Origin: Trypanosoma brucei
Taxonomy: Eukaryota
NCBI GenBank assembly: GCA_000002445.1
Contig: CP000066.1
Location: 448,001 to 512,000, forward strand
Direction: 5' to 3'
DNA: 64,000 bases
Numbering within the stretch: the stretch's first letter is position 1; each line of letters begins with the position of its first letter. The notes below the pieces were generated by a model, which did no database searches, was not told the origin of the DNA, and was given only the letters and a program-made list of their open reading frames with translations. Made by a program: the position numbers and the translations under genes. Positions 7,843-48,337 of the stretch are shown here, one piece after another.

Positions 7843-8316
7843 CTCACCCTTTTGGTTTCCTCCTGTATTCCTTTCTCCTCAAATATGATGATGTGACTAA
7901 AAATATCCCCTATGCTTATCCCGCACTCTAACTTTGTATGTTCTTGTTTAAAATTGTTTCAGCTGTTGTTCCCTTCCCTTCTCCCCAGCGCCCACAACCG
8001 AATCGGTTTATTGGCTCATAATTAAGAGGGAAAGTATGCAACACCAGCGTAATTAAAGAATAAGGATGAAAAGGATGGATGATCACTCGAACGACATGCC
8101 GCAAATAAATAAAAAAAGGTAAAACAAACACGAAAACTTACGAAAAAAAAACCTTCCAAATAACTCTCACGCATTCATCAGCGCTATTTCCTTCAGTCTT
8201 TTTTTTTAATGATTTCAGAATTTCCTCAACAGGGAAGAAAGGAAGCTGAAAACATTTCATGCAGCACATGCACTCGTGTATGCCTTTACACGATATGAAG
8301 TAATGACACAAATCTT

Positions 8317-26526: not shown

Positions 26527-27954
26527 TTACTCCAATTGTCGCACATGAACGACTTCAAGTATACCGTCTGACAAACGTCGCCGGATATGAAACTCAGCAA
26601 TGCCGAAGTTCTCCAGCGTACGACCAACTTCATCCACCAATTGGTTGATTCGCGCAAGGTCATTGGGAAGTTGCGAGGAAGTTAACGACCGGAACGAAGC
26701 GACATTCATTCCAAGTGCACGTTGCAGCCACGCATTACCGAGATCCACGACAATTGCGCCATCTTCCCCAACATCAAGACTGGGCGTCAGTGGTTGCTGA
26801 ACGGAGAGGAGAACCTTAAGTGAGAAGGATGGAGGTTCTCCAGGACTGCAATTCTCACCGTCACGGATGGTTAAGTCCGACATAACATCGGTAATTTTGC
26901 CGATCGCAGTTGAAAATGGGGGAGTTGCAGTTGGTGGCTGCTCAGGTGTAGGAGTGGCAGGCACAAAGTACTCTTGCGTAACCCTCGGATGTGACAAAGG
27001 CTCAGGAGTTGGTGTCAAGCGCGCTGCCGGTCTTGTGGGGGGTGTTGGTTGTGCAGATGCTGCCGCGGGGGGCGATGGTTGCACCACAGGCCCTGAAACT
27101 CCTTCATTGGTCTGATGACGATACTCTAATAGTTGCTGTTGTTGCTGTTGCCTCTGCTGTTGTTTTTGATGTTGTTTTTGATGTTGTTTTTGATGTTGTT
27201 GTTGGGTTGGTCCCGGCGCCACCCCACTGTGATTCGTATCACCCGCAATTCGAGGCGCAGGGGCGGATGAGAAAGTGGCGGTATTCGTATTCGTGTTCAT
27301 ATTCGTTGCAGAAGAAGCCTGCGCGATCCGCCCCGGGCGACCGGATAATTCGTGGAGTTTCTTGACGGCATAATCTTCCCAGAAAGATTGAATCTCCTTC
27401 ACGAAACCACCCAGAAGTTCTGTCTTTTCTGACTCCAAAATAATTACCCCGTTCAACAAGCGCAGGGGTGCAAACAAACGCAGTTTGGATCCCAAAACCA
27501 CGCCAGTCCGTAGCGCATCGCAACCCCGGCGACAGTCTTCCACCGCAAAGACCCGTACGAAACCATCTGTAAGGACCAGACGAAGCAGCCTCTGCCGCCG
27601 GCCATGATGACGTGCGGAATTATCTTTGCTCTCCAATGAACGAAGTGTTTCTTCAAGGCTTCCTGGCTCCGTTATTTCGGTGCAAACTCCCTCTGTGTCA
27701 GCACCCGTTGGTGCAATCTCACGAAGTCGCTGAGCGAGTGGAAGTGACACGTCTGCAACTTCGTTCACCTGAAGAATTATCGATGGTACTATTTTCTGCC
27801 CGATAGCACCTTCTGGTACTGACAACTGAAAGTCATGTGGAAGCAGCCCACCACCATCATGCAACGGGGGAAGTTGTCTGACAACACCGGGTGGGTCAAG
27901 TGAAGCTAAATATTCAAAGTTAGAGTTGAGAAACTCAGCGCTCGGCTGCTCCAT
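26527..27954 (-). CDS. RMI1: RecQ-mediated genome instability protein 1 (RMI1/BLAP75)-like, OB-fold N-terminal domain, Q/H-rich linker
   Basis: The track start is TTG, and the first ATG gives MEQPSAEFLNS. The N-terminal region RLLRLVLTDGFVRVFAVEDCRRGCDALRTGVVLGSKLRLFAPLRLLNGVIILESEKTELLGGFVKEI matches the RMI1 DUF1767/OB1 pattern (LQLTDG...AVE...G.K..L.G...NG.LLL....VLGG). The central region contains a (HQKQ)n / poly-Q stretch and a Pro/Thr-rich linker. Confidence 0.7.
   Translation of the reverse strand: MEQPSAEFLNSNFEYLASLDPPGVVRQLPPLHDGGGLLPHDFQLSVPEGAIGQKIVPSIILQVNEVADVSLPLAQRLREIAPTGADTEGVCTEITEPGSLEETLRSLESKDNSARHHGRRQRLLRLVLTDGFVRVFAVEDCRRGCDALRTGVVLGSKLRLFAPLRLLNGVIILESEKTELLGGFVKEIQSFWEDYAVKKLHELSGRPGRIAQASSATNMNTNTNTATFSSAPAPRIAGDTNHSGVAPGPTQQQHQKQHQKQHQKQQQRQQQQQQLLEYRHQTNEGVSGPVVQPSPPAAASAQPTPPTRPAARLTPTPEPLSHPRVTQEYFVPATPTPEQPPTATPPFSTAIGKITDVMSDLTIRDGENCSPGEPPSFSLKVLLSVQQPLTPSLDVGEDGAIVVDLGNAWLQRALGMNVASFRSLTSSQLPNDLARINQLVDEVGRTLENFGIAEFHIRRRLSDGILEVVHVRQLE
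27130..27215. repeat. Coding 12-nt tandem repeat, (ttgtttttgatg)x3 flanked by (ctgttg)n, encoding (HQKQ)n / poly-Q in RMI1
   Basis: gttgtttttgatgttgtttttgatgttgtttttgatgttgttgttg on the plus strand. On the minus strand it translates to HQKQHQKQHQKQQQRQQQQQQ. Confidence 0.85.
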
Positions 27955-29831
27955 GCAAATAAAACTAAATGGGTTTACAACAACAACAACGTAAACCCGG
28001 GGTACTTGGTAGAAAAGTTCTGAAACAACTAAGAGAGAAAGGAGGTGCAATGGAATTGATGCGCACTCACTCGGAGGTTTTTCAGTACAAATATCATAAG
28101 AAGGGTAAAGTTGACAAGTATTATTTGTGCTTGGAGGGTAACCACAGTAACGAAAGTGATTTTTTTTAAAAAAAGAAAAAGGTTCACAGGGAGAGTGAGC
28201 AGTAGTGATAAGTCACGGGTGACTTTTCGCAAGCCGGTTCGGTTGCGCCAAGGCAATATTTTCGCTATGCTCTCCATTCTCCGCCCAATCCCGCCGATTT
28301 GTTTGTGCATCCACAACATTATTTAACAAACGCATGCACCATTTCGTGTGTTCGTGCTTCTTTCAAAATAATAATTAAAAAAAGTAGCGCCGAATCCTCG
28401 TCACATTGAACTGTTGCAGCAAAAAAAAAAAACTCCTAAAGGTGGAAAAAGGTGAAAAGAAAATGGAGGCACATGAAGGAAAATACTGTTGTGAGTACAA
28501 TTTCGTAAAGCAAAATGATTTTTTTTTTAAATAAAAAAGACGTCGAAAGCAGTAATACCCCCCCCCCTCCTTCCCTTCCTATGTTTTTCTTCGTTTCCTT
28601 TCAGATATTTCTTTTATCTGTAATTTAATTGTACTCTTCCTAAATGTCAGCCTCCCATGCATCACTTTTCTCTCTCGTTGCTACTAAAACAAAACAAAGC
28701 ATAAAACCTCCTTCCCCTTTCAATTCCCCTTCATCACCATGAATCCTAAAACAGCTTAGCAAAGGGCAAGAATTTTTTTAAAAAAGGAAAGCAAATGAGA
28801 AATGGGAGAAACCCACTACACATATGCTAAAATCCCCATTGCAGTACTAACCTCGTACCAAACACAATTAACTTATTTTCCTATCGATATTTATTATATA
28901 TTATTATTTTTTTTTGTAACTACAACAAAGGCGTCAATCTGAGACCTCATTTGTGTCGACAAACCGGGGAGGAAAACTTTACGTGATTGAAAAATACAGG
29001 AAAGAGGGTAATGCGAGAGATAAATGGTGACTAAACATTGTCAAATGAGACCGATCTTGGACCAAGAAAAAAAAAAGAAAAGGGGAAAGGAAAAGAAAGG
29101 AAAGGGGGAACTAAACTAAAACTTCCGGTTTTTCTTTACGCTTTTCAGTTAAATCCCACAACTCCCAAGACGCGCGCACAGTTCACCCATAAATTAATTC
29201 AACCTTTGCTTTTACCCTTCCTTTTCCCTCATTCACTCTTACAACTCACCATCGAAACAACAAAATAAGAGAAATAATAACAAATGAAAAAAAAAAAGAA
29301 CTTTCCCATCCTTCTCCTCCTATACCTTAATGATTACATTTATTTCTTCGGTAGCACAATTTTCTCTTCTTTCTTTTTTTTTCAATTTGTTTAGTTGATG
29401 ATAAATGTTCGCTGATTCATGATATTCCCTCTCCCTTTTTTTCCTCTTAATATTTGCCTTCTTCTATTCATTTCCTTTACAAGTTACCATTCCTCGCAAA
29501 TGTAGCTAATAAAACAAAAGAGATAATTGATAAACTAAAACACAAAGAACAAACAATGAAAAATTTTAAAATTTTTTTAAAAAAATGTAAAGAAGGAAAT
29601 GAGGATGGACGTTTCGAGAGAAAAGATGTAATGATACAACAAATCATAACAAAACGAAACAAAAAAAAAGGAACCGGATGTGTCACAAACGGGTGCCTCA
29701 CTTCAACCAACCCAGCGCCTCATGGACGATGTAACTGGTATCTGCACCAACTTCCCTTTTTTTTTGTTTTCCTCTTTTTATCCATCTCACTCCCTCACAT
29801 CACACCACTCATTTTCTTCTCGTTGTTGTTT

Positions 29832-30181: not shown

Positions 30182-31078
30182 CTACAGAAGGAATGGTAAC
30201 ATGGCCTTCTTGTTGCGCACCGATGGATCTGTTTTAATATAGTTCTTGTGTTTCTTCACAGCCCACTCCGCCATTTGTACGAGTCCTGCAAATGTAAAAC
30301 CCCAGGAGGTTAGCATACTCGTACCAAGAGAAAAGGCCACCCAAGAAAGGATCTCAAATAAGTAATTGGGACAAGACACCAGTGAAAAGAGAATTCCTTT
30401 GGGTACCGGCCGCGTCGCGTCACCATCTCCCTTTCGCATCCCACTCAACTGCACATGCACGGCAAAGTTAAGGAGCTCGAATATTACCATCGCCACCGCT
30501 GAGGCATTCACAAGTGTGGGGGACGCGGGTTCCGTGTAGTACGGGCTGCATAGAGCATAGCCAATGCCAAGTGCAAAGGTCCAGTAATACACGCAATTTT
30601 TGATGATGTTGCGCCGCGGCATAGTGGGGTGAGAGAACTTGTGCACAAAGAACGTCTCCAGCTCCCGCTTAATGAAGTGGGCACAGAAGAGAGCAATGTA
30701 AAGCTTCTGCGTGTAGCAGTACTCCTTAACAATGCTGCTGCCGTAAATGAAGGAGGGGCGTGCCGCATACGCCAACATGATTGCCAAAGGACCGGCGTAT
30801 TCCACAACGAATACGGTACGGTATCCCACCTGTGGGCCGAGATCCTTGTAAACAACTTCAGATCCATCCTTTACACCCTGTTCCGTGAGAGCCCGCTTTG
30901 CGTCGAGGGTTATGTACGCCGATTTATCATTCTTGTCGCCACCACTACGAAGGATTTTGAAAGACTTGCGATGAATATCCACTCTTGGTTTGTACACCTT
31001 TTTGAGGTCAGTGAGACCGGCATTTGAGGGTAGTTCAACCACCTCTGAGGATGAGCCTGATATCACGGTAACCTTCAT
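30182..31078 (-). CDS. TECR: Trans-2-enoyl-CoA reductase / 3-oxo-5-alpha-steroid 4-dehydrogenase family (TECR/Tsc13-like), with an N-terminal ubiquitin-like domain
   Basis: The track ORF starts at TTG (31246). The first ATG is at 31076-31078 (MKVTVISGSSSEVVELP, a ubiquitin-like beta-grasp). The C-terminal polytopic steroid 5-alpha-reductase domain reads FVHKFSHPTMP...NCVYYWTFALGIGYAL...SCPNYLFEILSWVAFSL. Confidence 0.85.
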   Translation of the reverse strand: MKVTVISGSSSEVVELPSNAGLTDLKKVYKPRVDIHRKSFKILRSGGDKNDKSAYITLDAKRALTEQGVKDGSEVVYKDLGPQVGYRTVFVVEYAGPLAIMLAYAARPSFIYGSSIVKEYCYTQKLYIALFCAHFIKRELETFFVHKFSHPTMPRRNIIKNCVYYWTFALGIGYALCSPYYTEPASPTLVNASAVAMVIFELLNFAVHVQLSGMRKGDGDATRPVPKGILFSLVSCPNYLFEILSWVAFSLGTSMLTSWGFTFAGLVQMAEWAVKKHKNYIKTDPSVRNKKAMLPFLL

Positions 31079-31138
31079 GATTTGGACTTTTGGCAGTTTC
31101 TTTTTTTTGTTGTTGCTTTTGTTGGCGTGAGATAAATT

Positions 31139-31228
31139 CTGTACAAGATGAACGTAGATGAGTAAACACAAATATATATATGCATATATGCATAGACATA
31201 GCCGTACACGTAAAAAAAAAAACGATAA
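31139..31228 (-). promoter_or_regulatory. Example polypyrimidine tract plus first downstream AG (candidate spliced-leader acceptor) upstream of the TECR gene
   Basis: On the minus strand the sequence reads ...tttatcgtttttttttttac... and shows no AG until ...tcttgtacAG (plus-strand 'ct' at 31139-31140). This lies about 60 nt upstream of the ATG at 31078. Comparable T/C tracts precede every gene in the window. Confidence 0.35.
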
Positions 31229-32260
31229 ATTAGAATTCAGTAGCAAACGTTAGGGAGATGCGAATTTAATTAAAATATAATGAAAAGCAGGCTAAACAAC
31301 AACACGAATGAAAAGGTGTTACGAGAAGAGAAGCAACTGAAATGCGCGACTCTTCCATTCACCTTCTCATTCAGGAAGTTAAATAATGTTTTTTTTTCCT
31401 CTTTCTTTCTTTTTTTTGAAGAAGGAAAGAAACGTGCAATATAAATAATCGACCCAACAAATTAAGCAGGTTTTCTAAACTTCTGAAAGGGGTAACGTAA
31501 CGCAACATGAAAAGGTCAGCTTGATGAAATGGGATTGGGGCAAGCTACAAAATATACAAAAAAAAAAAGAAGGGGGAGGAAAAAAAAAACGCCTCAGTAA
31601 ATCAATAAAATTGAAAGAAGTACTGAGGGGCCACCCATTTGGGAGGAAATTCGTATCGACTACCATTGAAGAAAAGATAAGGGAGAAGTATTAAGACAGA
31701 TGAGATAGGGCGAAGTTAATTAATGAGGGGGGAAGAATATTTTAAGTATAAAACAAATTGAAGATATATACATATGTATTTCTGTATACAAAAAAATGTA
31801 GTAACAATCAACAAAAAAACAAAAAGAAAGAAACAAATGAGAAATAAATGAGAAATAAAGTACCAAAGAAACCAAGCGTTCCAGCTGGAACGCCCACCAG
31901 TAACACTGCGCCATAATTAAAATCACTACAAACAACCGTATTCCCATACATGTGAATATATACATCCCTTAGTAAACAATGCGGAGGCGAATCGAAGCTG
32001 CAAAAGGAGCAATCCCAAGCTCACGATGTCCCATGACACCTTTAATCCGCGCTCCTTTACACCTTATTATTATTATTGTTATTTTACGCTTCCCCTTCCT
32101 TTCCCACGTCCCTCCAACGCACACACACACAACCATCCAATCTTAATATCGTTTACATAACAAAAAAGTGTACTCAAAGAAAGGAAAGGAAAACCAGGCA
32201 CCACTTTTTCCCTCTCCCACTTCCCAATTAGTCACTAAGATGTTCACCAAACACACATCA

Positions 32261-34048
32261 CTAAGAACTCACATCAAGATTAAAGAACGGATGGCAAAGT
32301 GCACTGGCTGCCGTCATACGTTGCCTCGGGTCTCGCTCGAAACAGCGCATAACAAAATCATTTAACACTGAAGGCCATGCCTCCGGATGCCGCAATGCTG
32401 GGGACAAAAAATTCTCCTCCATGGCCATAAACGTAGCGGCTGGATCCCACACTGCGTACTCAAGCCCATTAAGCATTCTCAAAAGGACACAACCTACACT
32501 CCACATATCGCAGGAGGCGGCGAAAGTTGCAACACGGTTGGCTTCATATCTGGGTTCAGCACTGGCAGATGCCCAATACACCTCAGGCGCCATTGTACTG
32601 AAGTCGCCAAGTTGGGAAATGGGCGATCCGAGACGCTGCGCGAGGCCAAGGTCAGTCAGCACAACACGCGGAAAGGAAAAATCCTCCACCAAAACCTGTT
32701 TAAGTGTTAGGGGTGATGAAAGAAGGCTCTCAGCGCCTGCATCACCAAATGGCCATGGTTTGGATAGGAGGATATTCTCCGCCTTCACATCAAGATGGCA
32801 CAAGTTGCACACATTGTTGAGAAAGTAAAGCGCATGACATATGCTCCACGCTACGTGCTGGACCTCTCGCACAGTAAACAGCGTCCGAGGCGTAGCGCCA
32901 GTACCTCCCGTGCCATCATGGGAAGGGAAGGGGCACCCCGTTGCGGATGAAACTTTATAAATCTCGCTGCGCTTATTAATACAGTCGCCTAGAGAAGTGG
33001 GATAGAGTTCTAGCGGGAAAAGCAACGCATCCCGCTTGATGCTGTACATTACGCTGCCAACGAGCTTTACTACAAAAAGTGAGCCCGTCAGAAAGGTACG
33101 CAGGACATGCAGACGCCCTTCTAACTCCGTTATGTTGTTCTTGATATGTGAAAGCTCGCTCTCATCGCCCTCCGTGCATTCCTCCGATACTCCTGCTGCT
33201 TGTCGTTTAAGCTGCTCCAACTCTCTTTCCACAGTCCGCACATCAGTTTCAAGTCGATGAGTTGCACTAGTTACCGTCTGAAGGGCACAACTTTCATCAA
33301 GAGTCCACTTTCCCTGAACGCGACTAATCTTAATGGCAACACGGCGGGCCTTAATGGATGCGCCCGTGGGAGTCCCATTCCATAGCACACAGTCGGAACC
33401 CTGATTACGACTTGTAGCAGTGCTATCAGCGCATACGCCATCCACTTCCACAACTGACTTCCGTTTGGCAGGGACGACAATCCCATAGTTTCCGCGACCT
33501 ATGTAACCTGTGAAGCTGCTGCCACACGTAGACGACAGTTGCCTCAGACTGAAACACGATTCAAGCTCTTGGTCACTTTTTAAAAATTCATACGGTGAAC
33601 TTTCCTCTTCGGGGAACATTTGCAACAATTGCGACGGAGTCGGTTCGATCTCTCGCTGGAGATCAAATTTACTGTCGTCGTCAGTTCTCGGACCGCTGCT
33701 TCCCCCCAAAGGAGCCTCGTCTCCTCCTTCATTTGTAACGGCTTCACCTCTTTTATATTCGTCACGGCCCCTCGCCATCGTATCAAATGGCAAAACGGCA
33801 CTACACGTACGGCTAAGGCCAAACTGTGCCATTGGTGGGGCACTCCACGTATGAATGAACTCCATGACATTTTTTGGACGGTTAATAACAATGTCGACGA
33901 GGAGGTTGTTAACAATATTCTGCGCACCGCTCTGATGCATCCAGCGGTCAATAGCCAAAGTGGGTTCTTTCTTATTTGCTTCATTGCTGGGATCGTTGCA
34001 GCCGTCCCCCGTAATTTTGTCCATCCCGGTAATTAAGTTCCCCCTCAT
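32261..34048 (-). CDS. Ser/Thr protein kinase with an N-terminal RIIa/DPY-30-like dimerisation-docking motif and non-canonical catalytic motifs (HLD, DLG)
   Basis: 595 aa, and the ATG is confirmed (atgaggggg...). The N-terminus reads GAQNIVNNLLVDIVINRPKNVMEFIHTW, which parallels the RIIa/DPY-30 consensus VPILLQGL...RP.NP.EFL. The kinase has a Gly-loop GRGNYGIVV, VAIK, a large insert, HLDVKAENILLS (normally HRD...), DLGLA (normally DFG) and MAPEVYW. Confidence 0.85.
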   Translation of the reverse strand: MRGNLITGMDKITGDGCNDPSNEANKKEPTLAIDRWMHQSGAQNIVNNLLVDIVINRPKNVMEFIHTWSAPPMAQFGLSRTCSAVLPFDTMARGRDEYKRGEAVTNEGGDEAPLGGSSGPRTDDDSKFDLQREIEPTPSQLLQMFPEEESSPYEFLKSDQELESCFSLRQLSSTCGSSFTGYIGRGNYGIVVPAKRKSVVEVDGVCADSTATSRNQGSDCVLWNGTPTGASIKARRVAIKISRVQGKWTLDESCALQTVTSATHRLETDVRTVERELEQLKRQAAGVSEECTEGDESELSHIKNNITELEGRLHVLRTFLTGSLFVVKLVGSVMYSIKRDALLFPLELYPTSLGDCINKRSEIYKVSSATGCPFPSHDGTGGTGATPRTLFTVREVQHVAWSICHALYFLNNVCNLCHLDVKAENILLSKPWPFGDAGAESLLSSPLTLKQVLVEDFSFPRVVLTDLGLAQRLGSPISQLGDFSTMAPEVYWASASAEPRYEANRVATFAASCDMWSVGCVLLRMLNGLEYAVWDPAATFMAMEENFLSPALRHPEAWPSVLNDFVMRCFERDPRQRMTAASALCHPFFNLDVSS

Positions 34049-35929: not shown

Positions 35930-38245
35930 TTATTTTTTACCCCCGTGCCCTTTTGTGGAACTGTCGCTGCCGGAGTGGTTATTGGCATTAACTGATGAAC
36001 CGCTACCACCAGGCGCACTGCTCCCAGACGAGGCGGAGGAATTTGAAGCTGTTGAGTGCGCACCGGCGTGCTGCGAAGATTGTCCACCGTTTCTTCCACT
36101 GGACGAGCGCTTCTTCAACATGCGCTCCGCCTCACGATCCGCCTTTTGTTTATTCCACGCTTCCTTTTTCTCTCGTAACATTTGCCGCACCCCTCGCCCC
36201 TCCAGCACGCGAGGTGTTGGTGGTGATGGAAAGATAACACTCCGACAGTTGCGGGTGCCACAACTGCATGCAAATGGCGGCATACGTTCGTCACATAACG
36301 TGGCATAATCCACGGTTAACTCCTCACCACTATTAATTGTCCGCTTAGAGACAAGCGTCAGCGTCCGGCCCTGCAAGAAATGCATATTGGGTTCACAAGA
36401 GTGACGAATTGCAACTGCCTGATGAAGGCGATCACCACGTAAAATCACACACCCCACCACTGGATCCTCTTCCCCAAGTTTATATACAGCCTGAGCAATA
36501 ACGGGAACAGTGTGGGCCGCATCACTGAAGAGCGCCTTGCCGGGCCGTACGGTTCGGCTCGCTTTACTCGAAAAATTTCCACGAGAATCGTGACTGATGA
36601 AGTACCATGGCCGCCTTGCCTTCTGCTCACGGACTGCGCGGTTCACTGCATTGTCCACAAAGCGGTCGTGATCCCATGATTTATCGCCCACCACCATCAA
36701 GTCCGCGAAGTCACCGCCATCCTTCTCGCTGTACCACATCCCACAGTTTGGGTTGATTTCCAAAAAGTATACATCACCTTTGGGGTCTATACGAAAGTCA
36801 ACACGGCCATATCCGACCCCGTTCATAATGTGTTGGAAAGCATTCCGGGCCATGTCAATAATCCGTGGGTAGGCCGGGTCATTATGAGGAAGAAAACTGC
36901 ATGCCTCATCGTTGCATTCCATGGACCACTTCTTGTCAAAATAGGCAAAGTCATCTTCATTTTGCAAAAAGTTAAACATTAAAGGCCTGAACACCTTGAC
37001 GCCATGCGGACTCCCGCTGTCGGCACATGCGAGAACGGTGCCCTCACGTCCTCGAATAAACTCCTCCACCAGAGCGTGATTGAACTCTTTCAGAAATGTT
37101 CCAACCTTCACTTTCAACTCGTCCAGAGTGTCACAACGGTTATCCTTGTTAATGCCAACAGAAGCGTAACCGGAAAGATGTTTCACGATGACAGGGAACC
37201 GCAGATGACGACATTTCTTCGCCAAACCTTCCGTTTTATCCAAAAGCACAAAGTTAGGTGTATTCACACCGGCCCCGGCAACAAGCACTTTCATATCAAT
37301 CTTGCTGGGTTCAAAACTGCGCGAGTCTGTGCCCGTAAATGCTGCGTTGTGCTCCTCCAGTGCCTCTAATACGTCGATACCAGCACGCTTCTCATCTTTA
37401 CCACCGTCACAAAGGTTAAAGAAAACGTCGAAGTTGTTTGAGGTTACCAATTCTCGCACCTGACGATAGGCATCATCTTTACGCACAGCAACTTCCGTGA
37501 AGGAGTACCTGTTCTTGTCCTTCCGCACCCTGTGAGCGGGGCTGCAGTGGTAATTGTCCATTTCCGCAGTGACAGAATTGGTCCCTTCGTAGCTGCTGTT
37601 GAGGACACATACGCGCAATTGCTTCTTTACGCTCGCCCTTCTCCTGCCTAGAGTTTGAGATACCACCATCCCAGTCGCCGATTTTGTGCAGTGGGAACCA
37701 TTAGCGGATGAAGAGCCCGTTGACATTGCTGTTGCTGTGTTCGTGGTCGATGCACCGGATCTATTCACCACTGACTTGGAAGAGGAAGCTTTTACTTTCT
37801 TCAGCCCAATCACATCTTCTTTTCCTTTTCTTGCTGACCTTCCCCGATTCGATCCCTGCCCTATTTCCACTGCTGTAGTCATCCCTGAGCTTTTACCTGA
37901 CGCACCACCGCCGTTACTCGTACCTGATGCACTCAACAGGGCTGCACTCTTCGTGCCGGGGTTAATGCCATTACCTCCAGGATGAGCGGATGTACCGACG
38001 GCGGCGGGAGGCACGGCGCCTCCAACTGTCAAACAACTTGAAGTACCACCACTTTTACTGCTCACAGAAGAGGCAGCACCACGGGATGGGAGAATAATAG
38101 TTGTGTTGGATGACTTCCATCGCAGGGTGTGAACAGTCACGCAACTCCACACAGCCACTGTTGGGGTTTTGGGTATTAATACATCTGCAAGGGGACATCG
38201 TAAGACTGAAGCCACACCAAAACGTCGAATTGCTATTCTGTACAT
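35930..38245 (-). CDS. Fusion protein: D-Ala-D-Ala-ligase-like ATP-grasp domain followed by a SET-domain methyltransferase with post-SET Cys cluster, and a Ser/Gly-rich C-tail
   Basis: 771 aa with a verified ATG. The ATP-grasp part reads FPVIVKHLSGYASVGINKDNRCDTLDELKVKV...LVEEFIRGREGTVLAC...GYGRVDFRIDPKGDVYFLEINPNCGM. The SET part reads GCVILRGDRLHQAVAIRHSCEPNMHF...INSGEELTVDYATLCDERMPPFACSCGTRNCRSVI. Confidence 0.85.
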   Translation of the reverse strand: MYRIAIRRFGVASVLRCPLADVLIPKTPTVAVWSCVTVHTLRWKSSNTTIILPSRGAASSVSSKSGGTSSCLTVGGAVPPAAVGTSAHPGGNGINPGTKSAALLSASGTSNGGGASGKSSGMTTAVEIGQGSNRGRSARKGKEDVIGLKKVKASSSKSVVNRSGASTTNTATAMSTGSSSANGSHCTKSATGMVVSQTLGRRRASVKKQLRVCVLNSSYEGTNSVTAEMDNYHCSPAHRVRKDKNRYSFTEVAVRKDDAYRQVRELVTSNNFDVFFNLCDGGKDEKRAGIDVLEALEEHNAAFTGTDSRSFEPSKIDMKVLVAGAGVNTPNFVLLDKTEGLAKKCRHLRFPVIVKHLSGYASVGINKDNRCDTLDELKVKVGTFLKEFNHALVEEFIRGREGTVLACADSGSPHGVKVFRPLMFNFLQNEDDFAYFDKKWSMECNDEACSFLPHNDPAYPRIIDMARNAFQHIMNGVGYGRVDFRIDPKGDVYFLEINPNCGMWYSEKDGGDFADLMVVGDKSWDHDRFVDNAVNRAVREQKARRPWYFISHDSRGNFSSKASRTVRPGKALFSDAAHTVPVIAQAVYKLGEEDPVVGCVILRGDRLHQAVAIRHSCEPNMHFLQGRTLTLVSKRTINSGEELTVDYATLCDERMPPFACSCGTRNCRSVIFPSPPTPRVLEGRGVRQMLREKKEAWNKQKADREAERMLKKRSSSGRNGGQSSQHAGAHSTASNSSASSGSSAPGGSGSSVNANNHSGSDSSTKGHGGKK

Positions 38246-39183: not shown

Positions 39184-40053
39184 TCACAAGTCACCGAAGA
39201 AACTCGCGTCCTCTAAAAGTTTTCCAACGCGCACGTGGCCCATGAGAGGCGGTCCATCAGGGTCTTCCAAAGAAGCTCGATCTCCGCGCATCCATGTGAA
39301 TTTGAGCACCCTTGAAAAGTTTCTCCCCTCCCAGTTCTTGTTATCGAAGTTTTGTTCAGCGATGTAAACAAGTGAGGGCTGTCGACGCTCCTTCTTCAGT
39401 TCGCGAAGTGCCGCCTCTCCACCAGCAGCAGATACGTCATCTTCCACCTTCACAACCACGGCAACGTGACCGCGTGGAAAGTATGCCTTATAGTCCGAGT
39501 CCCATACCACAACATCGCCCACGAGCGGCGTGTGCCGCTTGCGCCTCTTCGTTGTCGTGACTTCCACCTTATTTTCGAAGTTAATCCGCTCGTATAGACG
39601 GTGCATCCCGCTTGAACCAAAAAACTTGAGGTTCTCCCAGTACAAATCGTGTCTGCTTCCACCGAAATAGACGAAAATTCCTCGGGTGTGTAAAAGGTAG
39701 CGAGCAACAAACTCATCCGCGGTCCAACACAACCCAGTTGGTGCTCGCTTCCACTCGGACCCATACGGCATTTTCTTCATCACTTCATGTGGATAACCAA
39801 TTGTAGTGTAGGCGTATGTCTCTGACAGCCAGTGGCGGTGGCAGTTGCTCATAGAAGGGACGTCTGAACTATAACCTACAACAGAGTCCATGGGAGCGTT
39901 GCAATGCTCAAGTGGGTTGAAATCCATATGCATCCCATGTCTCTTTGATTTCTGCGTGGATCCCCCACCGAGGAGAACGTAGACGAATAGAAAAAGCAGG
40001 AGAGTAGCCGGCACAGCGAGCTGAAACTTCTGTTTTCGGTTTAGAGACACCAT
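39184..40053 (-). CDS. Stand-alone CHAP-domain amidase, related to the glutathionylspermidine/trypanothione amidase domain, with an N-terminal signal-anchor
   Basis: The track start is TTG, and the first ATG is at 40051-40053 (MVSLNRKQKFQLAVPATLLLFLFVYVLLGG, hydrophobic). The catalytic region reads GLCWTADEFVARYLLHTRG...GDVVVWDSDYKAYFPRGHVAVVVKVEDD...LVYIAEQNFDNKNWEG. It parallels trypanothione synthetase-amidase YQCVEFARRWLLERKG...[28 protein letters not shown]. Confidence 0.75.
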   Translation of the reverse strand: MVSLNRKQKFQLAVPATLLLFLFVYVLLGGGSTQKSKRHGMHMDFNPLEHCNAPMDSVVGYSSDVPSMSNCHRHWLSETYAYTTIGYPHEVMKKMPYGSEWKRAPTGLCWTADEFVARYLLHTRGIFVYFGGSRHDLYWENLKFFGSSGMHRLYERINFENKVEVTTTKRRKRHTPLVGDVVVWDSDYKAYFPRGHVAVVVKVEDDVSAAGGEAALRELKKERRQPSLVYIAEQNFDNKNWEGRNFSRVLKFTWMRGDRASLEDPDGPPLMGHVRVGKLLEDASFFGDL

Positions 40054-40403
40054 TTGTGGCGTGATTTGTTGATTCGCGTCCTTTACAAAATAATAATAAT
40101 AACAATACCAATGCCAATGCCAATAAGGTTTTATAGCCCTCCCGTGAAAGGATGGAAGAAAGATAGAAAGAAGAGCATTGACAGAAACGTGCCAACAGGA
40201 AAGAACCCGATCATCGGACACACAGAATGTACCGCTGAAGCGATATAGTAGGTAAAAAGTGCGAGACACAAATGGCAAAAAAAATTTTCAAAGTTCGTAT
40301 GATGGGAAAAGGTGTAAAACATGTGAAATCCTCCCCACATTCATCTGATTATTGCGCCGTACATCAGACCAGTAGACTGCCGCCGATTTTCTCCACGCAC
40401 CAA

Positions 40404-45733: not shown

Positions 45734-48337
45734 TTATGCTTCATCTTCTATCTCATCTTCACCTGTGCCAGACGCACGGGCAACATCATTCCCACTAAGT
45801 TCTTCGCTCCCAATAGAGGAAGATGATGAAGAAGCGTTCTTTCGACCTTTGGATACGCTAGAGCTTGACCGAGACGTCCTTTTACTGCTCGATTCTTTGG
45901 ACGATGCACCATCCGCTGAGTCCTTCGCCGCGTCGGCACCGGACGCCTCATCCACAGCCTCGCTCTTTACCGCATCAGAATCTAGCTCATCTACATCCTG
46001 ATCGTTAACATGTTCGTCCTCTACAACCTGTTGCACAGCCTCACCCTTTTCAGATGATGGCGATCTCTCCAGTTCGTCGCCGTACTCGAACTTATCCCCC
46101 TCCAGTTTAGCGGATGATTCGGATTTCTTCGATGATGAGCGGGACTGCTCCGACTCGGTATCTTTCTTTTCAGATGTCTGGGACTTGTCAAGCTCCTCAG
46201 TGTATTCATCCTTCTGTTCATCATCCTCAGGCTTCTTCGATGATGAGCGGGACCGCTCCGACTCGGTATCTTTCTGATCCTCAGCCTCGGTATCTTTCTT
46301 TTCAGATGTCTGGGACTTGTCAAGCTCCTCAGTGTATTCATCCTTCTGTTCATCATCCTCAGGCTTCTTCGATGATGAGCGGGACCGCTCCGACTCGGTA
46401 TCTTTCTGATCCTCAGCCTCGGTATCTTTCTTTTCAGATGTCTGGGACTTGTCAAGCTCCTCAGTGTATTCATCCTTCTGTTCATCATCCTCAGGCTTCT
46501 TCGATGATGAGCGGGACTGCTCCGACTCGGTATCTTTCTTTTCAGATGTCTGGGACTTGTCAAGCTCCTCAGTGTATTCATCCTTCTGTTCATCATCCTC
46601 AGGCTTCTTCGATGATGAGCGGGACCGCTCCGACTCGGTATCTTTCTGATCCTCAGCCTCGGTATCTTTCTTTTCAGATGTCTGGGACTTGTCAAGCTCC
46701 TCAGTGTATTCATCCTTCTGTTCATCATCCTCAGGCTTCTTCGATGATGAGCGGGACCGCTCCGACTCGGTATCTTTCTGATCCTCAGCCTCGGTATCTT
46801 TCTTTTCAGATGTCTGGGACTTGTCAAGCTCCTCAGTGTATTCATCCTTCTGTTCATCATCCTCAGGCTTCTTCGATGATGAGCGGGACCGCTCCGACTC
46901 GGTATCTTTCTGATCCTCAGTGTCAGGATCCTTCTTTCCGGACTCGGAGGCTTCAAATTCGTCACCATAATCATTCTTGGTTGTATCAGCAGTTGGTTCA
47001 TCATCCGTCTTGTCTGCATCATCCTTCGTCAGTTCCTCAGGCTTCTTCGATGATGAGCGGGACCGCTCCGACTCGGTATCTTTCTGATCCTCAGTGTCAG
47101 GATCCTTCTTTCCGGACTCGGAGGCTTCAAATTCGTCACCATAATCATTCTTGGTTGTATCAGCAGTCGGTTCATCATCCGTCTTCTCTCGTCCTTCCCT
47201 GCCGGATCTCTCAGACTTCCTTGACGATGGTCGAGAACGGTCAGATTGAGTGTCCTTCCCATCTTCAGCATCGGTGGTGTCCTGTTGCATCGCTTTTTGA
47301 CTGGCGCTTGCAGATGCAGAGGACGGGCGAGCAGCAGATGCAGGACGGCTATTGCCACCATCCTTCAAAATTTCCTTGCTCGTCGACTGCTCTGTCGAGG
47401 CTGGTTGCGGAGATGCTGTAGAAGGTCTGCTTTCCCTCTTAGCTTCGCTGGGTTGCGCCACACTTGATGTAGAACCCTTCCCAGTTGCAGAGTCTTCCGC
47501 GACTGATGATGAAATTGGGGCCTCGTCTTCGGTCACAGCACCGTGCTTACTGCTTTCAGTTAACCCTCCACCGGACTTCCGGCCGCCAACGGGAGAAGCG
47601 GCTCCTTTGCCCTTCTGTGGTGTGGCGGGTCGGGAAGAGTCCGAATTTAGAGTTTCTCTAATGGTCTTGAGTAATATATTCTTGGGAGGGGACGAAGTTT
47701 TGCCCTTTCCCTGACTGCTGCAGGCACCCGGTCGGCCACCTCGTTGGCCCACTGTATCAGGACGCTTTTGTTTGGGTGGCTTAGGAACTGTCGCCACGGC
47801 GCGTTTCTTGGATCCAGTAGCTCTACTCGACACAGTACGTTGACGCTTCTTCGCAACTTCTTTTCTACCCGATGTAGTCTCTTTCGGGCTGGTCAACTCC
47901 TCGGCCTCAACACGCCTCTGCGTAGCGAATCCCGTCCGGCATGCGAGTTCCTCCAACTCCCTCTGGCGCCGTTCCTCAAATCGCCGGCGAGCCACTTCAC
48001 GCCGATGTTGCTCCAACCGCTTCTGCCGCCTCATCTCTTCCCGGCGCTCGGCCGTTTCACGGATCAACATCTCCCTTCGGGCCCAGTAAGGTGCAAGGTA
48101 TGGATCTTCCAAATCGTTATACGGAGGAAGACTTTGGTCTTGTAGTGGCCCAAGTGTGAATTCTGTTTCTAGGAAGCGCTGAGCGGACTGTGGGCGTAGA
48201 TTACTGTTTACTGTAGATCTTGGTGTAACAACACACAAAGCATTGGTAGCAGCCGGACCATGTGACGCGTAGACGCCCACTCGAGCTGCCTCACCGCCGC
48301 GAGATGAACTCTCCAGTGGGGGGAGCGACTTCGACAT
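45734..48337 (-). CDS. Highly acidic Ser/Lys/Glu/Asp-rich tandem-repeat protein (867 aa) with an Arg-rich coiled-coil N-terminus
   Basis: Verified ATG (atgtcgaagtcgctcccc). The N-terminus reads RREMLIRETAERREEMRRQKRLEQHRREVARRRFEERRQRELEEL. It is followed by at least 8 near-identical 44- or 36-aa units SE(R/Q)SRSSSKKPEDDEQKDEYTEELDKSQTSEKKDTE(AEDQKDTE). Two longer 62-aa units precede them. Confidence 0.85.
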   Translation of the reverse strand: MSKSLPPLESSSRGGEAARVGVYASHGPAATNALCVVTPRSTVNSNLRPQSAQRFLETEFTLGPLQDQSLPPYNDLEDPYLAPYWARREMLIRETAERREEMRRQKRLEQHRREVARRRFEERRQRELEELACRTGFATQRRVEAEELTSPKETTSGRKEVAKKRQRTVSSRATGSKKRAVATVPKPPKQKRPDTVGQRGGRPGACSSQGKGKTSSPPKNILLKTIRETLNSDSSRPATPQKGKGAASPVGGRKSGGGLTESSKHGAVTEDEAPISSSVAEDSATGKGSTSSVAQPSEAKRESRPSTASPQPASTEQSTSKEILKDGGNSRPASAARPSSASASASQKAMQQDTTDAEDGKDTQSDRSRPSSRKSERSGREGREKTDDEPTADTTKNDYGDEFEASESGKKDPDTEDQKDTESERSRSSSKKPEELTKDDADKTDDEPTADTTKNDYGDEFEASESGKKDPDTEDQKDTESERSRSSSKKPEDDEQKDEYTEELDKSQTSEKKDTEAEDQKDTESERSRSSSKKPEDDEQKDEYTEELDKSQTSEKKDTEAEDQKDTESERSRSSSKKPEDDEQKDEYTEELDKSQTSEKKDTESEQSRSSSKKPEDDEQKDEYTEELDKSQTSEKKDTEAEDQKDTESERSRSSSKKPEDDEQKDEYTEELDKSQTSEKKDTEAEDQKDTESERSRSSSKKPEDDEQKDEYTEELDKSQTSEKKDTESEQSRSSSKKSESSAKLEGDKFEYGDELERSPSSEKGEAVQQVVEDEHVNDQDVDELDSDAVKSEAVDEASGADAAKDSADGASSKESSSKRTSRSSSSVSKGRKNASSSSSSIGSEELSGNDVARASGTGEDEIEDEA
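46100..47130. repeat. Coding tandem-repeat array: 8 copies of a 132-nt unit, or 108-nt where a 24-nt segment is missing, inside the acidic-repeat gene
   Basis: The marker 'gatgatgagcggga' recurs at about 46131, 46239, 46371, 46503, 46611, 46743, 46875 and 47049. The spacings are 108, 132, 132, 108, 132, 132 and 174 nt. The copies are nearly identical apart from C/T differences (gggaccgc versus gggactgc). Confidence 0.9.

Follow-up and report, generated by a model that had tools for sequence, protein, structure and literature searches.

Described proteins with one or both domains

The SET domain is usually seen as a feature of enzymes of chromatin and of protein lysines, and nearly all characterised SET enzymes do methylate lysines of proteins. 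BurB, in contrast, is a SET-domain methionine S-methyltransferase (MSMT; PDB 9l4t) of DMSP and malleicyprol biosynthesis. It is a stand-alone protein of 172 aa, tetrameric in solution according to a published report, and it contacts methionine via main-chain atoms and hence without a side-chain signature. Of the ATP-grasp ligases, Ddl and VanA (PF07478) share the fold, and about 20% identity, with SET30, the Trypanosoma brucei protein considered here, from which they differ by having no fused SET domain. RimK and LysX/ArgX, which like TTL are ATP-grasps that work on proteins, are clearly farther from SET30 than Ddl is.

Has a single chain with both types of domain been described? TTLL12, reported in trypanosomes too (PMC3520985), is a eukaryotic chain with a SET-type and an ATP-grasp-type domain, as SET30 is. 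However, the order in TTLL12 is reversed, the SET-like part being N-terminal and TTL C-terminal where SET30 has ATP-grasp and then SET; its ATP-grasp is of a different family (TTL), and its SET-like part is closest to SETD3/4/6. Critical catalytic residues are missing from both TTLL12 domains, and in vitro no activity of the protein was found (PMC3520985). SET30 does not have the TTLL12-family architecture, and the two are independent, convergent combinations. A guide of another kind, mechanistic only and with no claim of homology, is Ngg of NAGGN osmolyte synthesis. The ligase part of Ngg is presumably an ATP-grasp, and its modifying domain is an acetyltransferase where that of SET30 is a SET methyltransferase. 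One Ngg polypeptide N-modifies an amino acid and joins it by a peptide bond to a second, the product being a capped dipeptide (PMC8070244).

A sequence-only reading of the locus had remarked that the combination was not familiar from characterised enzymes. That holds in so far as no functional study came up in a literature search on ATP-grasp with SET, on D-Ala-D-Ala ligase with SET and on the gene ID, and no characterised member of the ATP-grasp-SET family was found in the literature searched. It needs to be balanced by the TTLL12 precedent, by the presence of this domain make-up in database product names and by the naming of the gene as SET30 in a survey of 2021. TbSETD, a mitochondrial SET protein described in a preprint, is the product of a different gene, Tb927.9.11350.

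The gene, its protein and the two active sites

In the window (the whole 64,000-nucleotide stretch of T. brucei DNA analysed) the gene is a single ORF at 35930..38245 on the minus strand, ATG to TAA, of 771 aa plus the stop codon, with neither internal stops nor ambiguous bases. Its protein is 100% identical to XP_843780.1/AAZ10221.1; the gene ID Tb927.3.1860 and the name SET30 (UniProt Q57ZC5) are those of Staneva et al. 2021, Suppl. Table S1. An assembly join or frameshift between the halves had been named as what would undo the fusion, and is very unlikely to be its source, since the same protein is present in other Trypanosoma records and the two domains are ordered alike family-wide. The identical 771-aa protein recurs in records of T. 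b. brucei TREU927 and of T. equiperdum, 771-aa proteins of T. b. gambiense and T. b. equiperdum share a 90%-identity cluster with it, and every trypanosomatid orthologue, together with hundreds of bacterial and eukaryotic homologues, has both Pfam domains, ATP-grasp ahead of SET. Identity among trypanosomatids is 66–90% in both domains versus 14–46% in the tails, and an alignment of 100 sequences has 27 invariant columns distributed over both halves. The reading of one polypeptide with two domains has thus stood, and SET30 is a real, conserved fusion of a Ddl-type ATP-grasp with SET whose catalytic sites, to judge from their residues, are both intact. An AlphaFold model of aa 205–700 (pLDDT 94, pTM 0.90) predicts with high confidence that the two domains are packed rigidly against each other. 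Because of that predicted packing, the earlier suggestion of coupled modification of one substrate is a reasonable one; the ‘chromatin-linked’ sensor offered as its alternative is not supported.

The ATP-grasp ligase, aa 211–545 (36611..37615, minus strand), has the Ddl fold and is built of three subdomains, one N-terminal, one central and one C-terminal. Its motifs are NLCDGG (277–282), PSKIDMK (313–319), VIVKH (352–356), RGRE (398–401), DKKW (437–440), GRVDF (480–484) and EINPNCG (496–502), followed by a linker helix at approximately 526–544. Pfam PF07478 (Dala_Dala_lig_C) matches aa 321–503 with E=1.9e-15 and 57.4 bits, the gathering cutoff being 24. SET30 K315, K355, E394, E401 and K439 align with K97, K144, E180, E187 and K215 of DdlB, and R481, D483, E496, N498 and G502 with R255, D257, E270, N272 and G276; the majority of them are invariant in the 100 sequences. 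The full residue set for binding of ATP and Mg2+ and for acyl-phosphate chemistry is thus present.

Is the ligase then a D-alanine-D-alanine ligase to which SET has been added, as automatic annotations (‘D-alanine-D-alanine ligase’, K01921) have it? Its top Pfam, NCBIfam and PDB matches are Ddl, and homologues are so named in their source records. However, with the NCBIfam Ddl models TIGR01205/NF002378 it scores far below the cutoffs (72.1 bits versus 245.65; 71.4 versus 243). Glu15, Ser150, Tyr216, Ser281 and Leu282 of E. coli DdlB we take to be the D-Ala-binding residues, with Tyr216 as the specificity residue of Ddl. Tyr216 is replaced by an invariant Trp (W440 in SET30) and Ser150 by Ala361, while Glu15 and Ser281/Leu282 are outside the alignable region and have no alignable counterpart in SET30. 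The motifs NLCDGxxDE and NPNCG...AD also mark the ATP-grasp-SET proteins apart from Ddl/VanA. Moreover, hosts of the family include trypanosomes, moss and a giant virus, which have no D-Ala-D-Ala-containing wall. By all these signs SET30 is not a D-Ala-D-Ala ligase, and the annotated activity is hardly credible; of the label ‘Ddl-like’ the fold survives, the family scores and the substrate residues do not.

The compact SET methyltransferase domain, aa 546–672 (36230..36610, minus strand), has RHSCEPN at 614–620, ELTVDY at 642–647 and the post-SET CSCGTRNCR at 660–668. With these, all the motifs first quoted from the letters (RGRE, xVDF, EINxxxG, RHSCEPN, ELTVDY and the CxCGxxxCR cluster) have been located in the translation. 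The SET beta-fold is present, though SET-N is divergent and SET-I shortened. Pfam PF00856 recognises aa 612–647 only (E=1.1e-7; model positions 64–104 of 105), at 32.6 bits versus a threshold of 22.4, so that both domains are above their gathering thresholds; the short paralogue, like members from bacteria, virus and moss, is matched over the full length. Within the 100 sequences H615, C617 and P619 of RHSCEPN are invariant and Y647 of ELTVDY is at least 90% conserved. The first position of (N)HSxxPN varies across the family, being Asn in most members and Arg in SET30. C617, C660, C662 and C667, i.e., CxCx4C plus the Cys of NHSC, are invariant and are predicted to form a post-SET Zn(Cys)4 site. 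Conservation of the four cysteines, of the SET core motifs and of the ATP/Mg2+ residues extends from bacteria to trypanosomes.

It has to be considered that only one domain is catalytic, with SET serving the ligase as a SAM-binding sensor or regulator or as a module that recognises the substrate, or with the two roles exchanged. The divergence of SET-N and SET-I in the long clade to which SET30 belongs, the restriction of its Pfam match to the C-terminal half and the Arg at the start of its HSxxPN are compatible with such a role, for which the non-catalytic SET-like domain joined to an ATP-grasp in TTLL12 is a precedent. Yet in the SET domain all four zinc cysteines, as well as the His and the Tyr of the catalytic site, are invariant or at least 90% conserved, the ATP-grasp set is complete, both domains are well kept in trypanosomatids, and TTLL12, unlike SET30, is missing critical residues in both. 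A single working site is accordingly unlikely.

What would a SET domain of this type methylate? Its best PDB match is BurB, with whose His93 (the HSCxPN His) and Tyr124 (the ELTVDY Tyr) the core residues align, and the family shares with BurB DYA(S/T)xxDxxMxxFxCxCG, which bears the substrate- and SAM-contacting positions of that enzyme. The BurB sequence match in SET30 covers only aa 611–678, the C-terminal ~70 residues, and in the fold search MLL1 and CpSET8 score nearly as high, the margin over lysine methyltransferases being small. Since the nearest solved SET relative methylates free methionine, the lysine methyltransferase role originally attached to the domain should not be assumed. The misleading automatic names ‘D-alanine-D-alanine ligase’ and ‘histone-lysine methyltransferase’ can both be corrected.

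The bacterial family and its gene neighbourhoods

The ~490-aa ATP-grasp-SET core is present in many bacterial phyla, and also in a giant virus, moss, a green alga, plasmodiophorids and a jakobid. Profiling across Euglenozoa had been suggested, but the fusion is no Euglenozoan speciality: the family, by its breadth and in a rough NJ tree, is bacterial in origin, with a patchy presence in eukaryotes and one giant virus. A scan of viral contigs found nothing. Kinetoplastids have two paralogues, a long, mitochondrial-type one and a short one; the one copy found in T. brucei is of the long group, and the short one has probably been lost there. Behind the pair may lie one acquisition from bacteria and a later duplication in Discoba. 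That group gained extensions beyond the core and its SET-I lost ~16–20 residues, a deletion specific to it. SET30 is thus a nuclear-encoded, predicted bifunctional enzyme built on a core of bacterial ancestry. The bacterial members are mostly compact, stand-alone and without adaptor domains.

Approximately 5 of the ~23 distinct bacterial fusion loci are informative operons, the others having no informative neighbours. At four loci, in four phyla, a stand-alone SET gene of 159–181 aa is directly upstream of the fusion on the same strand, and it is BurB-like; that of Chlorobium matches BurB with E=8e-13 versus ~1e-4 for any histone methyltransferase. Transporter genes, either ABC-type or of the MFS ‘secretion effector’ type, come after the fusion gene at L019, L028, L024 and L001, with a second Ddl-type ATP-grasp in addition at L028 and a third SET at L019. 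The cultured Chlorobium ferrooxidans DSM 13031 has the complete operon, which makes it an easy experimental entry; its fusion gene is at L019 6457–7926 and the genes run SET, fusion, ABC, SET, while those of the Bacteroidota operon run SET, ATP-grasp, fusion, ABC. Spurious antisense ORFs in high-GC loci were excluded from the comparison, and in four bacterial lineages retrieved by exact protein match there was no conserved partner gene. The conserved synteny of ATP-grasp-only relatives in Anaerolineae is of housekeeping genes (ABC transporter, GH4, galactokinase, MraZ/RsmH), and neighbours of the other ATP-grasp-only relatives have no common theme.

Because of the BurB-like SET upstream, the transporters downstream and the compact stand-alone form of the bacterial enzymes, we favour a two-step enzyme whose active sites ligate and then methylate one amino-acid-derived small substrate, with a probability somewhat short of even, roughly 0.45. 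The ATP-grasp would activate a carboxylate as acyl-phosphate and couple it to an amine, and SET would then move one or more methyl groups from SAM onto that molecule, at a nitrogen (or sulfur), so that a methylated dipeptide or amino-acid amide is formed. The small operons would be the setting of the reaction in some bacteria, with an exporter, a second ATP-grasp and SET enzymes of BurB type encoded alongside, and in T. brucei the basic tails would probably keep the enzyme at kDNA.

The layout at L019 and L028, modifying enzymes with ATP-grasps and an ABC exporter, resembles that of microviridin-type clusters, which comprise one or more modifying enzymes, one or more ATP-grasps and an ABC exporter. 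A graspetide-like RiPP, whose precursor peptide would be cross-linked by the ATP-grasp, methylated by the SETs and exported by the ABC transporter, was therefore considered. However, no conserved small precursor ORF was found in the operon gaps or flanks, most homologues are stand-alone and the ligase has a Ddl-like fold rather than being of MdnB/C type beside a precursor-peptide gene. That idea was rejected as very improbable.

The preference for a small substrate can be taken further, though only speculatively. The family may make methylated (‘onium’) dipeptides or amino-acid amides of a class not described so far, the ligase joining two building blocks, SET N- or S-methylating them and, in some bacteria, BurB-like helpers and exporters finishing the pathway. 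Trypanosomes would have recruited a copy to the mitochondrion, tethered to kDNA, where the biology of the kinetoplast would depend in some way on the product, or on a switch to the methylation and amino-acylation of proteins associated with kDNA. If true, either case would be a new SET activity outside chromatin and, as SET30 is without a human orthologue, a mitochondrial enzyme that is specific to the parasite and not shared with humans. More generally, this widespread bacterial and protist family, in which SET is predicted to be paired rigidly with a Ddl-like ligase, hints at uncharted amino-acid-derived metabolism or at a new paired modification of proteins.

SET30 at the kinetoplast

The first ~50 aa of SET30 (38096..38245, minus strand; MYRIAIRRFGVASVLR...) are presequence-like in composition, with 7 K+R versus 1 D+E, and are a probable mitochondrial import signal. 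Starts that are alike in being basic and hydrophobic are present in T. theileri, T. cruzi and most of the Leishmaniinae long orthologues listed, and missing from the T. vivax and Leptomonas pyrrhocoris entries and from the short paralogues. The low-complexity extension that follows, aa 51–210 (37616..38095, minus strand), is basic and rich in S, G, A and T (20 K+R versus 3 D+E). Its sequence is poorly conserved, 22–38% identity among trypanosomatids; conservation is rather of length and character, the N-terminal extensions of the trypanosomatid long orthologues being of 150–309 aa with 22–51 K+R versus 0–5 D+E. At the other end, aa 673–771 (35933..36229, minus strand) comprise, from the secondary structure of the model and from composition, a helix at ~684–699 and a basic S/G-rich tail, aa 691–771 having 14 K+R and 6 D+E; long basic low-complexity tails at both ends are general in the trypanosomatid long group.

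In TrypTag, a C-terminal tag places SET30 at the kinetoplast and mitochondrion, whereas with the tag at its N-terminus the protein mislocalises to the cytoplasm. From that and from the presequence-like start, SET30 is a nuclear-encoded mitochondrial protein, located at the kinetoplast and mitochondrion and not in the nucleus. What of a metabolism-coupled methyltransferase that works in the nucleus on histones or chromatin, as the ‘chromatin-linked’ proposal implied? SET with a post-SET cluster would suit it and the gene was among the putative chromatin factors surveyed by Staneva et al. (2021), but there the N-terminally tagged protein was undetected by western blot. Its location disfavours a histone role, and with the presequence-like N-terminus and the bacterial members of the family also against it, the proposal has to be given up as very improbable.

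A modifier of protein tails at the kinetoplast is another matter, and we regard it as a serious, though less probable, alternative. SET would methylate lysines of mitochondrial or kDNA-associated proteins, e.g., basic histone-H1-like KAPs or mitoribosomal and other translation proteins, and the ATP-grasp would add amino acids to their carboxylates in RimK/TTL-like ligation, with the basic tails bringing the enzyme to kDNA. The general preference of SET enzymes for protein lysines, the nearness of the MLL1 and CpSET8 scores to that of BurB, the existence of ATP-grasps that work on proteins and the linkage of TTLL12 to modification of tubulin and histones are all in its favour. So are the location of SET30, the conserved character of its basic extensions, a SET-I deletion that could open the substrate groove and the enrichment of a protein named SET30 (putatively Tb927.3.1860) on a ribonucleotide-containing dsDNA bait in a paper on DNA lesions; genes of enzymes that modify proteins, too, typically stand alone. 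On the other hand, RimK/TTL are much farther in fold from the ligase than Ddl and the L-amino-acid ligases are, operons with BurB-like SETs and exporters fit a housekeeping protein target poorly, and in the ~490-aa core no domain for docking of proteins or peptides can be recognised. None of the homologues examined is adjoined by a conserved gene that could encode the substrate, nor was an S6- or LysW-like partner gene found near any of them. For a small amino-acid-derived substrate, which we still prefer, the predominance of protein lysine methylation among characterised SET enzymes is awkward, and to the kDNA site, the long basic tails, the DNA pull-down and the remodelled SET-I a macromolecular target fits at least equally well.

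The T. brucei gene upstream (39184–40278) encodes a CHAP-domain protein, and a functional link was considered by analogy with glutathionylspermidine enzymes, in which an amidase and a synthetase are joined. As no CHAP homologue is near any bacterial member it was rejected as a partner, and the adjacency is treated as trypanosome synteny. In a genome-wide RNAi screen SET30 had a fitness effect during differentiation.

SET30, a predicted bifunctional enzyme whose active sites are both intact

The ORF for SET30 (Tb927.3.1860; window 35930-38245, minus strand) has 771 codons and runs from ATG to TAA uninterrupted with 0 ambiguous bases, i.e., no frameshift or assembly join separates its ATP-grasp and SET halves. 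All the motifs quoted in the sequence-only reading are present in its translation, RGRE (residues 398-401), GRVDF (480-484) and EINPNCG (496-502) for ATP-grasp, and RHSCEPN (614-620), ELTVDY (642-647) and the post-SET CSCGTRNCR (660-668). In HMM searches both profiles are significant and above the curated Pfam cutoffs, Dala_Dala_lig_C at residues 321-503 (E=1.9e-15, 57.4 bits vs 24) and SET at 612-647 (E=1.1e-7, 32.6 bits vs 22.4). An exact match (100% identity) is T. brucei TREU927 XP_843780.1 / AAZ10221.1 / UniProt Q57ZC5, and T. b. gambiense and T. b. equiperdum have 771-residue proteins in the same 90%-identity cluster. The fusion is real and conserved, and its annotation is wrong in places.

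What was already known? Q57ZC5 is listed as SET30, Tb927.3.1860, with 'SET' as sole domain (Staneva et al. 2021, Supplementary Table S1, PMC8559703), and fusions of this kind are already catalogued, with product names, e.g., 'ATP-grasp domain/D-ala D-ala ligase C-terminus/SET domain containing protein', recording the architecture. Literature searches found no functional study of SET30 or of the ATP-grasp-SET architecture; a 2008 microarray study names Tb927.3.1860 solely within a genomic clone also covering Tb927.3.1870, and a preprint on a 'mitochondrial SET protein TbSETD' was set aside as TbSETD is another gene, Tb927.9.11350. New here are the evidence for two intact and, by prediction, rigidly coupled sites, the mitochondrial specialisation of the long kinetoplastid paralogue to which SET30 belongs, the bacterial operons with exporters and SET genes resembling BurB (a solved SET enzyme), and the testable hypothesis that follows from these site, paralogue and operon data.

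A presequence-like, basic and acid-poor N-terminus (residues 1 to about 50) is followed by basic S/G/A/T-rich low complexity (51-210; 20 K+R, 3 D+E), the ATP-grasp (211-545), SET plus post-SET (546-672), and a helix with a basic S/G-rich tail (673-771). With a 100-sequence alignment as input, the AlphaFold model of residues 205-700 has pLDDT 94 and pTM 0.90, so that not just the individual folds but the placement of ATP-grasp relative to SET is confidently predicted. HMM-guided alignment to E. coli DdlB, a D-alanine-D-alanine ligase (Ddl), maps a complete catalytic set, DdlB K97, K144, E180, E187, K215, R255, D257, E270, N272 and G276 being SET30 K315, K355, E394, E401, K439, R481, D483, E496, N498 and G502, and most of these ten are invariant across the 100 sequences. 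In the SET half H615, C617 and P619 of RHSCEPN are invariant in the same sequences, as are the four putative zinc ligands of the post-SET part (C617, C660, C662 and C667), and D646 and Y647 of ELTVDY are conserved in at least 90%. The proposal that one polypeptide joins the two domains is thereby borne out, and both sites are intact.

Is it then a Ddl? 'Ddl-type' holds for the fold and catalytic residues, for which Ddl is the closest family, but not for family membership or substrate residues. The NCBIfam Ddl models give 72 bits, with cutoffs of about 245 not reached; at the specificity position Tyr216 the fusion family (proteins with a Ddl-fold ATP-grasp then SET, with a core of about 490 residues) has an invariant Trp, Ser150 is Ala in SET30, and Glu15 and Ser281/Leu282 have no alignable counterpart there in the HMM-guided mapping. 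A true Ddl is therefore rejected. The family has invariants of its own, an NLCDG motif and D515, which starts the helix after the NPNCG loop; by likeness to DdlB this helix start may be where a second substrate binds.

Likewise, of the 'SET lysine-methyltransferase' label the SET core stands and lysine as target is not to be assumed. The closest family, and best solved relative, is BurB/MSMT (E=4.5e-7 by sequence, 2e-19 by family profile), with a lead over lysine methyltransferases that is small. BurB, of 172 residues, S-methylates free methionine (PMC12542666), and 'lysine methyltransferase' is for that reason not a safe default. Since BurB contacts its substrate via main-chain atoms (PMC12542666), the substrate class of the SET half is not readable from sequence. 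TTLL12, the known SET-like plus ATP-grasp protein, has its domains in reverse order, its ATP-grasp is of the TTL type and its active sites are degenerate (PMC3520985), and so it is an independent combination and no relative.

Paralogues, ancestry and location

The fusion has a wide distribution, with 263 database clusters matching SET30 and 409 matching the short kinetoplastid paralogue at E<=1e-60. Long orthologues (64-82% identity, 458-1118 residues) have presequence-like starts in T. theileri, T. cruzi and most Leishmaniinae entries listed. In trypanosomatids their ATP-grasp is 75-86% and SET 66-90% identical, and the extensions just 14-46%, which despite this keep their length and strongly basic S/G/A/T-rich character (N-extensions of 150-309 residues, 22-51 K+R vs 0-5 D+E). 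The short paralogue, of about 500 residues and about 37% identity, begins directly at the ATP-grasp; it occurs in T. vivax, T. cruzi marinkellei, T. grayi, T. theileri, T. rangeli, Leishmaniinae, Angomonas, Trypanoplasma and Perkinsela. None of its database matches is from T. brucei, which therefore seems to retain just the mitochondrial-type copy, which suggests loss of the short one in the Trypanozoon lineage. The short paralogue and the bacterial, viral, moss and plasmodiophorid members match the Pfam SET model in full (positions 1-104). In the long clade, SET30 included, only its C-terminal half is matched, due to a SET-I deletion of about 16-20 residues (the 'WF.RYAWP..D..W..W' segment is gone in the alignment) and a divergent SET-N; the partial coverage thus has a biological cause.

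The enzyme is of bacterial ancestry. Scanning a single genome for each bacterial and archaeal species gave the complete fusion in Chloroflexota, Gemmatimonadota, Acidobacteriota, Chlorobiota (the cultured Chlorobium ferrooxidans DSM 13031), Planctomycetota, Actinomycetota, Desulfobacterota and Bacteroidota; other eukaryotes with it are plasmodiophorids, the moss Ceratodon, the snow alga Sanguina and the jakobid Andalucia, and one giant virus, Fadolivirus, has it too. In a rough NJ tree the two kinetoplastid clades are adjacent and apart from the bacteria/virus/moss/plasmodiophorid group, which fits a single acquisition followed by duplication, though the tree is crude. Near ATP-grasp-only relatives of about 340 residues occur in further phyla and one Asgard archaeon (Promethearchaeota MAG, locus L043, 5902-6912 in locus coordinates; 44% identical to the bacterial query across residues 36-320), whose neighbouring genes give no functional clue. 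A Solirubrobacterales MAG has its fusion gene split into several ORFs of 178, 128 and 322 residues (L041, 5971-7904), either a pseudogene or assembly frameshift errors. Distant SET-less relatives of the ATP-grasp (26-32% identity) in Omnitrophota and Planctomycetales MAGs (L054-L085) stand as tandem pairs of about 329 and 333 residues, apparently a separate, conserved two-ligase arrangement.

Where does SET30 act? TrypTag records 'kinetoplast, mitochondrion' for the C-terminal tag and cytoplasm for the N-terminal one, and N-terminally YFP-tagged protein was undetectable in bloodstream forms (PMC8559703). In T. brucei, SET30 is thus directed to the mitochondrion and kinetoplast and is very unlikely to be a chromatin enzyme; the C-terminal tag speaks against the chromatin-linked role once proposed. 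Its RIT-seq class, 1-1-1-0, denotes a loss of fitness confined to the bloodstream-to-procyclic differentiation experiment (PMC8559703). A dsDNA bait with a single ribonucleotide enriched six T. brucei proteins, including one called SET30, a match by name alone (PMC10220248, Table 1). Together with the basic tails and the SET-I remodelling specific to the long clade, the kinetoplast signal and this pull-down favour the main rival, serious though less probable than a small-molecule substrate, that SET30 modifies protein tails on kinetoplast DNA-associated or other mitochondrial proteins.

Bacterial operons and a possible small-molecule substrate

Most bacterial fusion genes stand alone. In four loci of four phyla a small stand-alone SET gene (159-181 codons) immediately precedes the fusion gene on the same strand, and the order by Pfam annotation is SET, ATP-grasp-SET, ABC exporter (ABC_membrane + ABC_tran) and SET in Chlorobium (L019); SET, Ddl-type ATP-grasp, ATP-grasp-SET and ABC_membrane_3 in a Bacteroidota member (L028); SET, ATP-grasp-SET and MFS in Solirubrobacteraceae (L024); and SET with ATP-grasp-SET in Caldilineaceae (L009). 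A Gaiellaceae locus (L001) has ATP-grasp-SET, ABC_tran and ABC2_membrane. These five look like mini biosynthetic clusters whose product is exported. No ORF that could encode a precursor peptide lies in the gaps of the operons, which with the Ddl-like fold argues against a graspetide-like RiPP system.

The C. ferrooxidans operon (L019, 5929-10219) is tight and same-strand, its products being a BurB-like SET of 172 residues (E=8e-13 to BurB, the next PDB match at about 1e-4), the 489-residue fusion, a 587-residue exporter and a second small SET of 120; here the pathway could be studied in a cultured host. A perfect hairpin (GTCCCGATGAAGTCGGGAC) in the 144-bp gap between fusion and exporter genes (7927-8070) could be a regulatory or terminator element, and an arylamine N-acetyltransferase gene lies just downstream of the operon on the opposite strand.

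A fold like that of Ddl, a SET domain like that of BurB, and operons that add further SET and ATP-grasp enzymes and exporters are the grounds for the leading, tentative reading (probability roughly 0.45) that SET30 acts on a small amino-acid-derived compound. The ATP-grasp would make an acyl-phosphate on a carboxylate and join it to an amine, and the SET domain would methylate that same molecule on a nitrogen or sulfur. A functional likeness is Ngg, which carries out both the N-acetylation of glutamine and its peptide linkage to another glutamine (PMC8070244). What probability this reading and protein-tail modification leave goes to one domain being non-catalytic and to minor alternatives.

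The rest of the window

Immediately upstream of SET30 is a gene (39184-40278, minus strand) for an amidase-type CHAP domain (Pfam PF05257, E=1.7e-6), probably starting at Met76 with one TM-like segment after it, and presumably Tb927.3.1870, a 'putative membrane protein'. A CHAP amidase beside an ATP-grasp ligase is reminiscent of glutathionylspermidine/trypanothione synthetase-amidase; no CHAP homologue was found near bacterial fusion-family members. Other neighbours are genes for a protein kinase (32261-34048), a steroid-5-alpha-reductase-like protein (30182-31246) and an RMI1 N-terminal OB-fold protein (26527-28050). The 867-residue ORF at 45734-48337 (minus strand) is a gene for a repeat-containing protein; its tandem repeats (46125-47189; 99-100%, units of 108 and 132 nt) coincide with a strong AT skew of -0.32 and long antisense ORFs. 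The 64,000 nt yielded no tRNA gene. The minus strand holds 22 of the 23 ORFs of at least 250 residues, only two of 32 sub-windows across 1-64000 lack a negative GC skew, and the whole looks like one polycistronic transcription unit.
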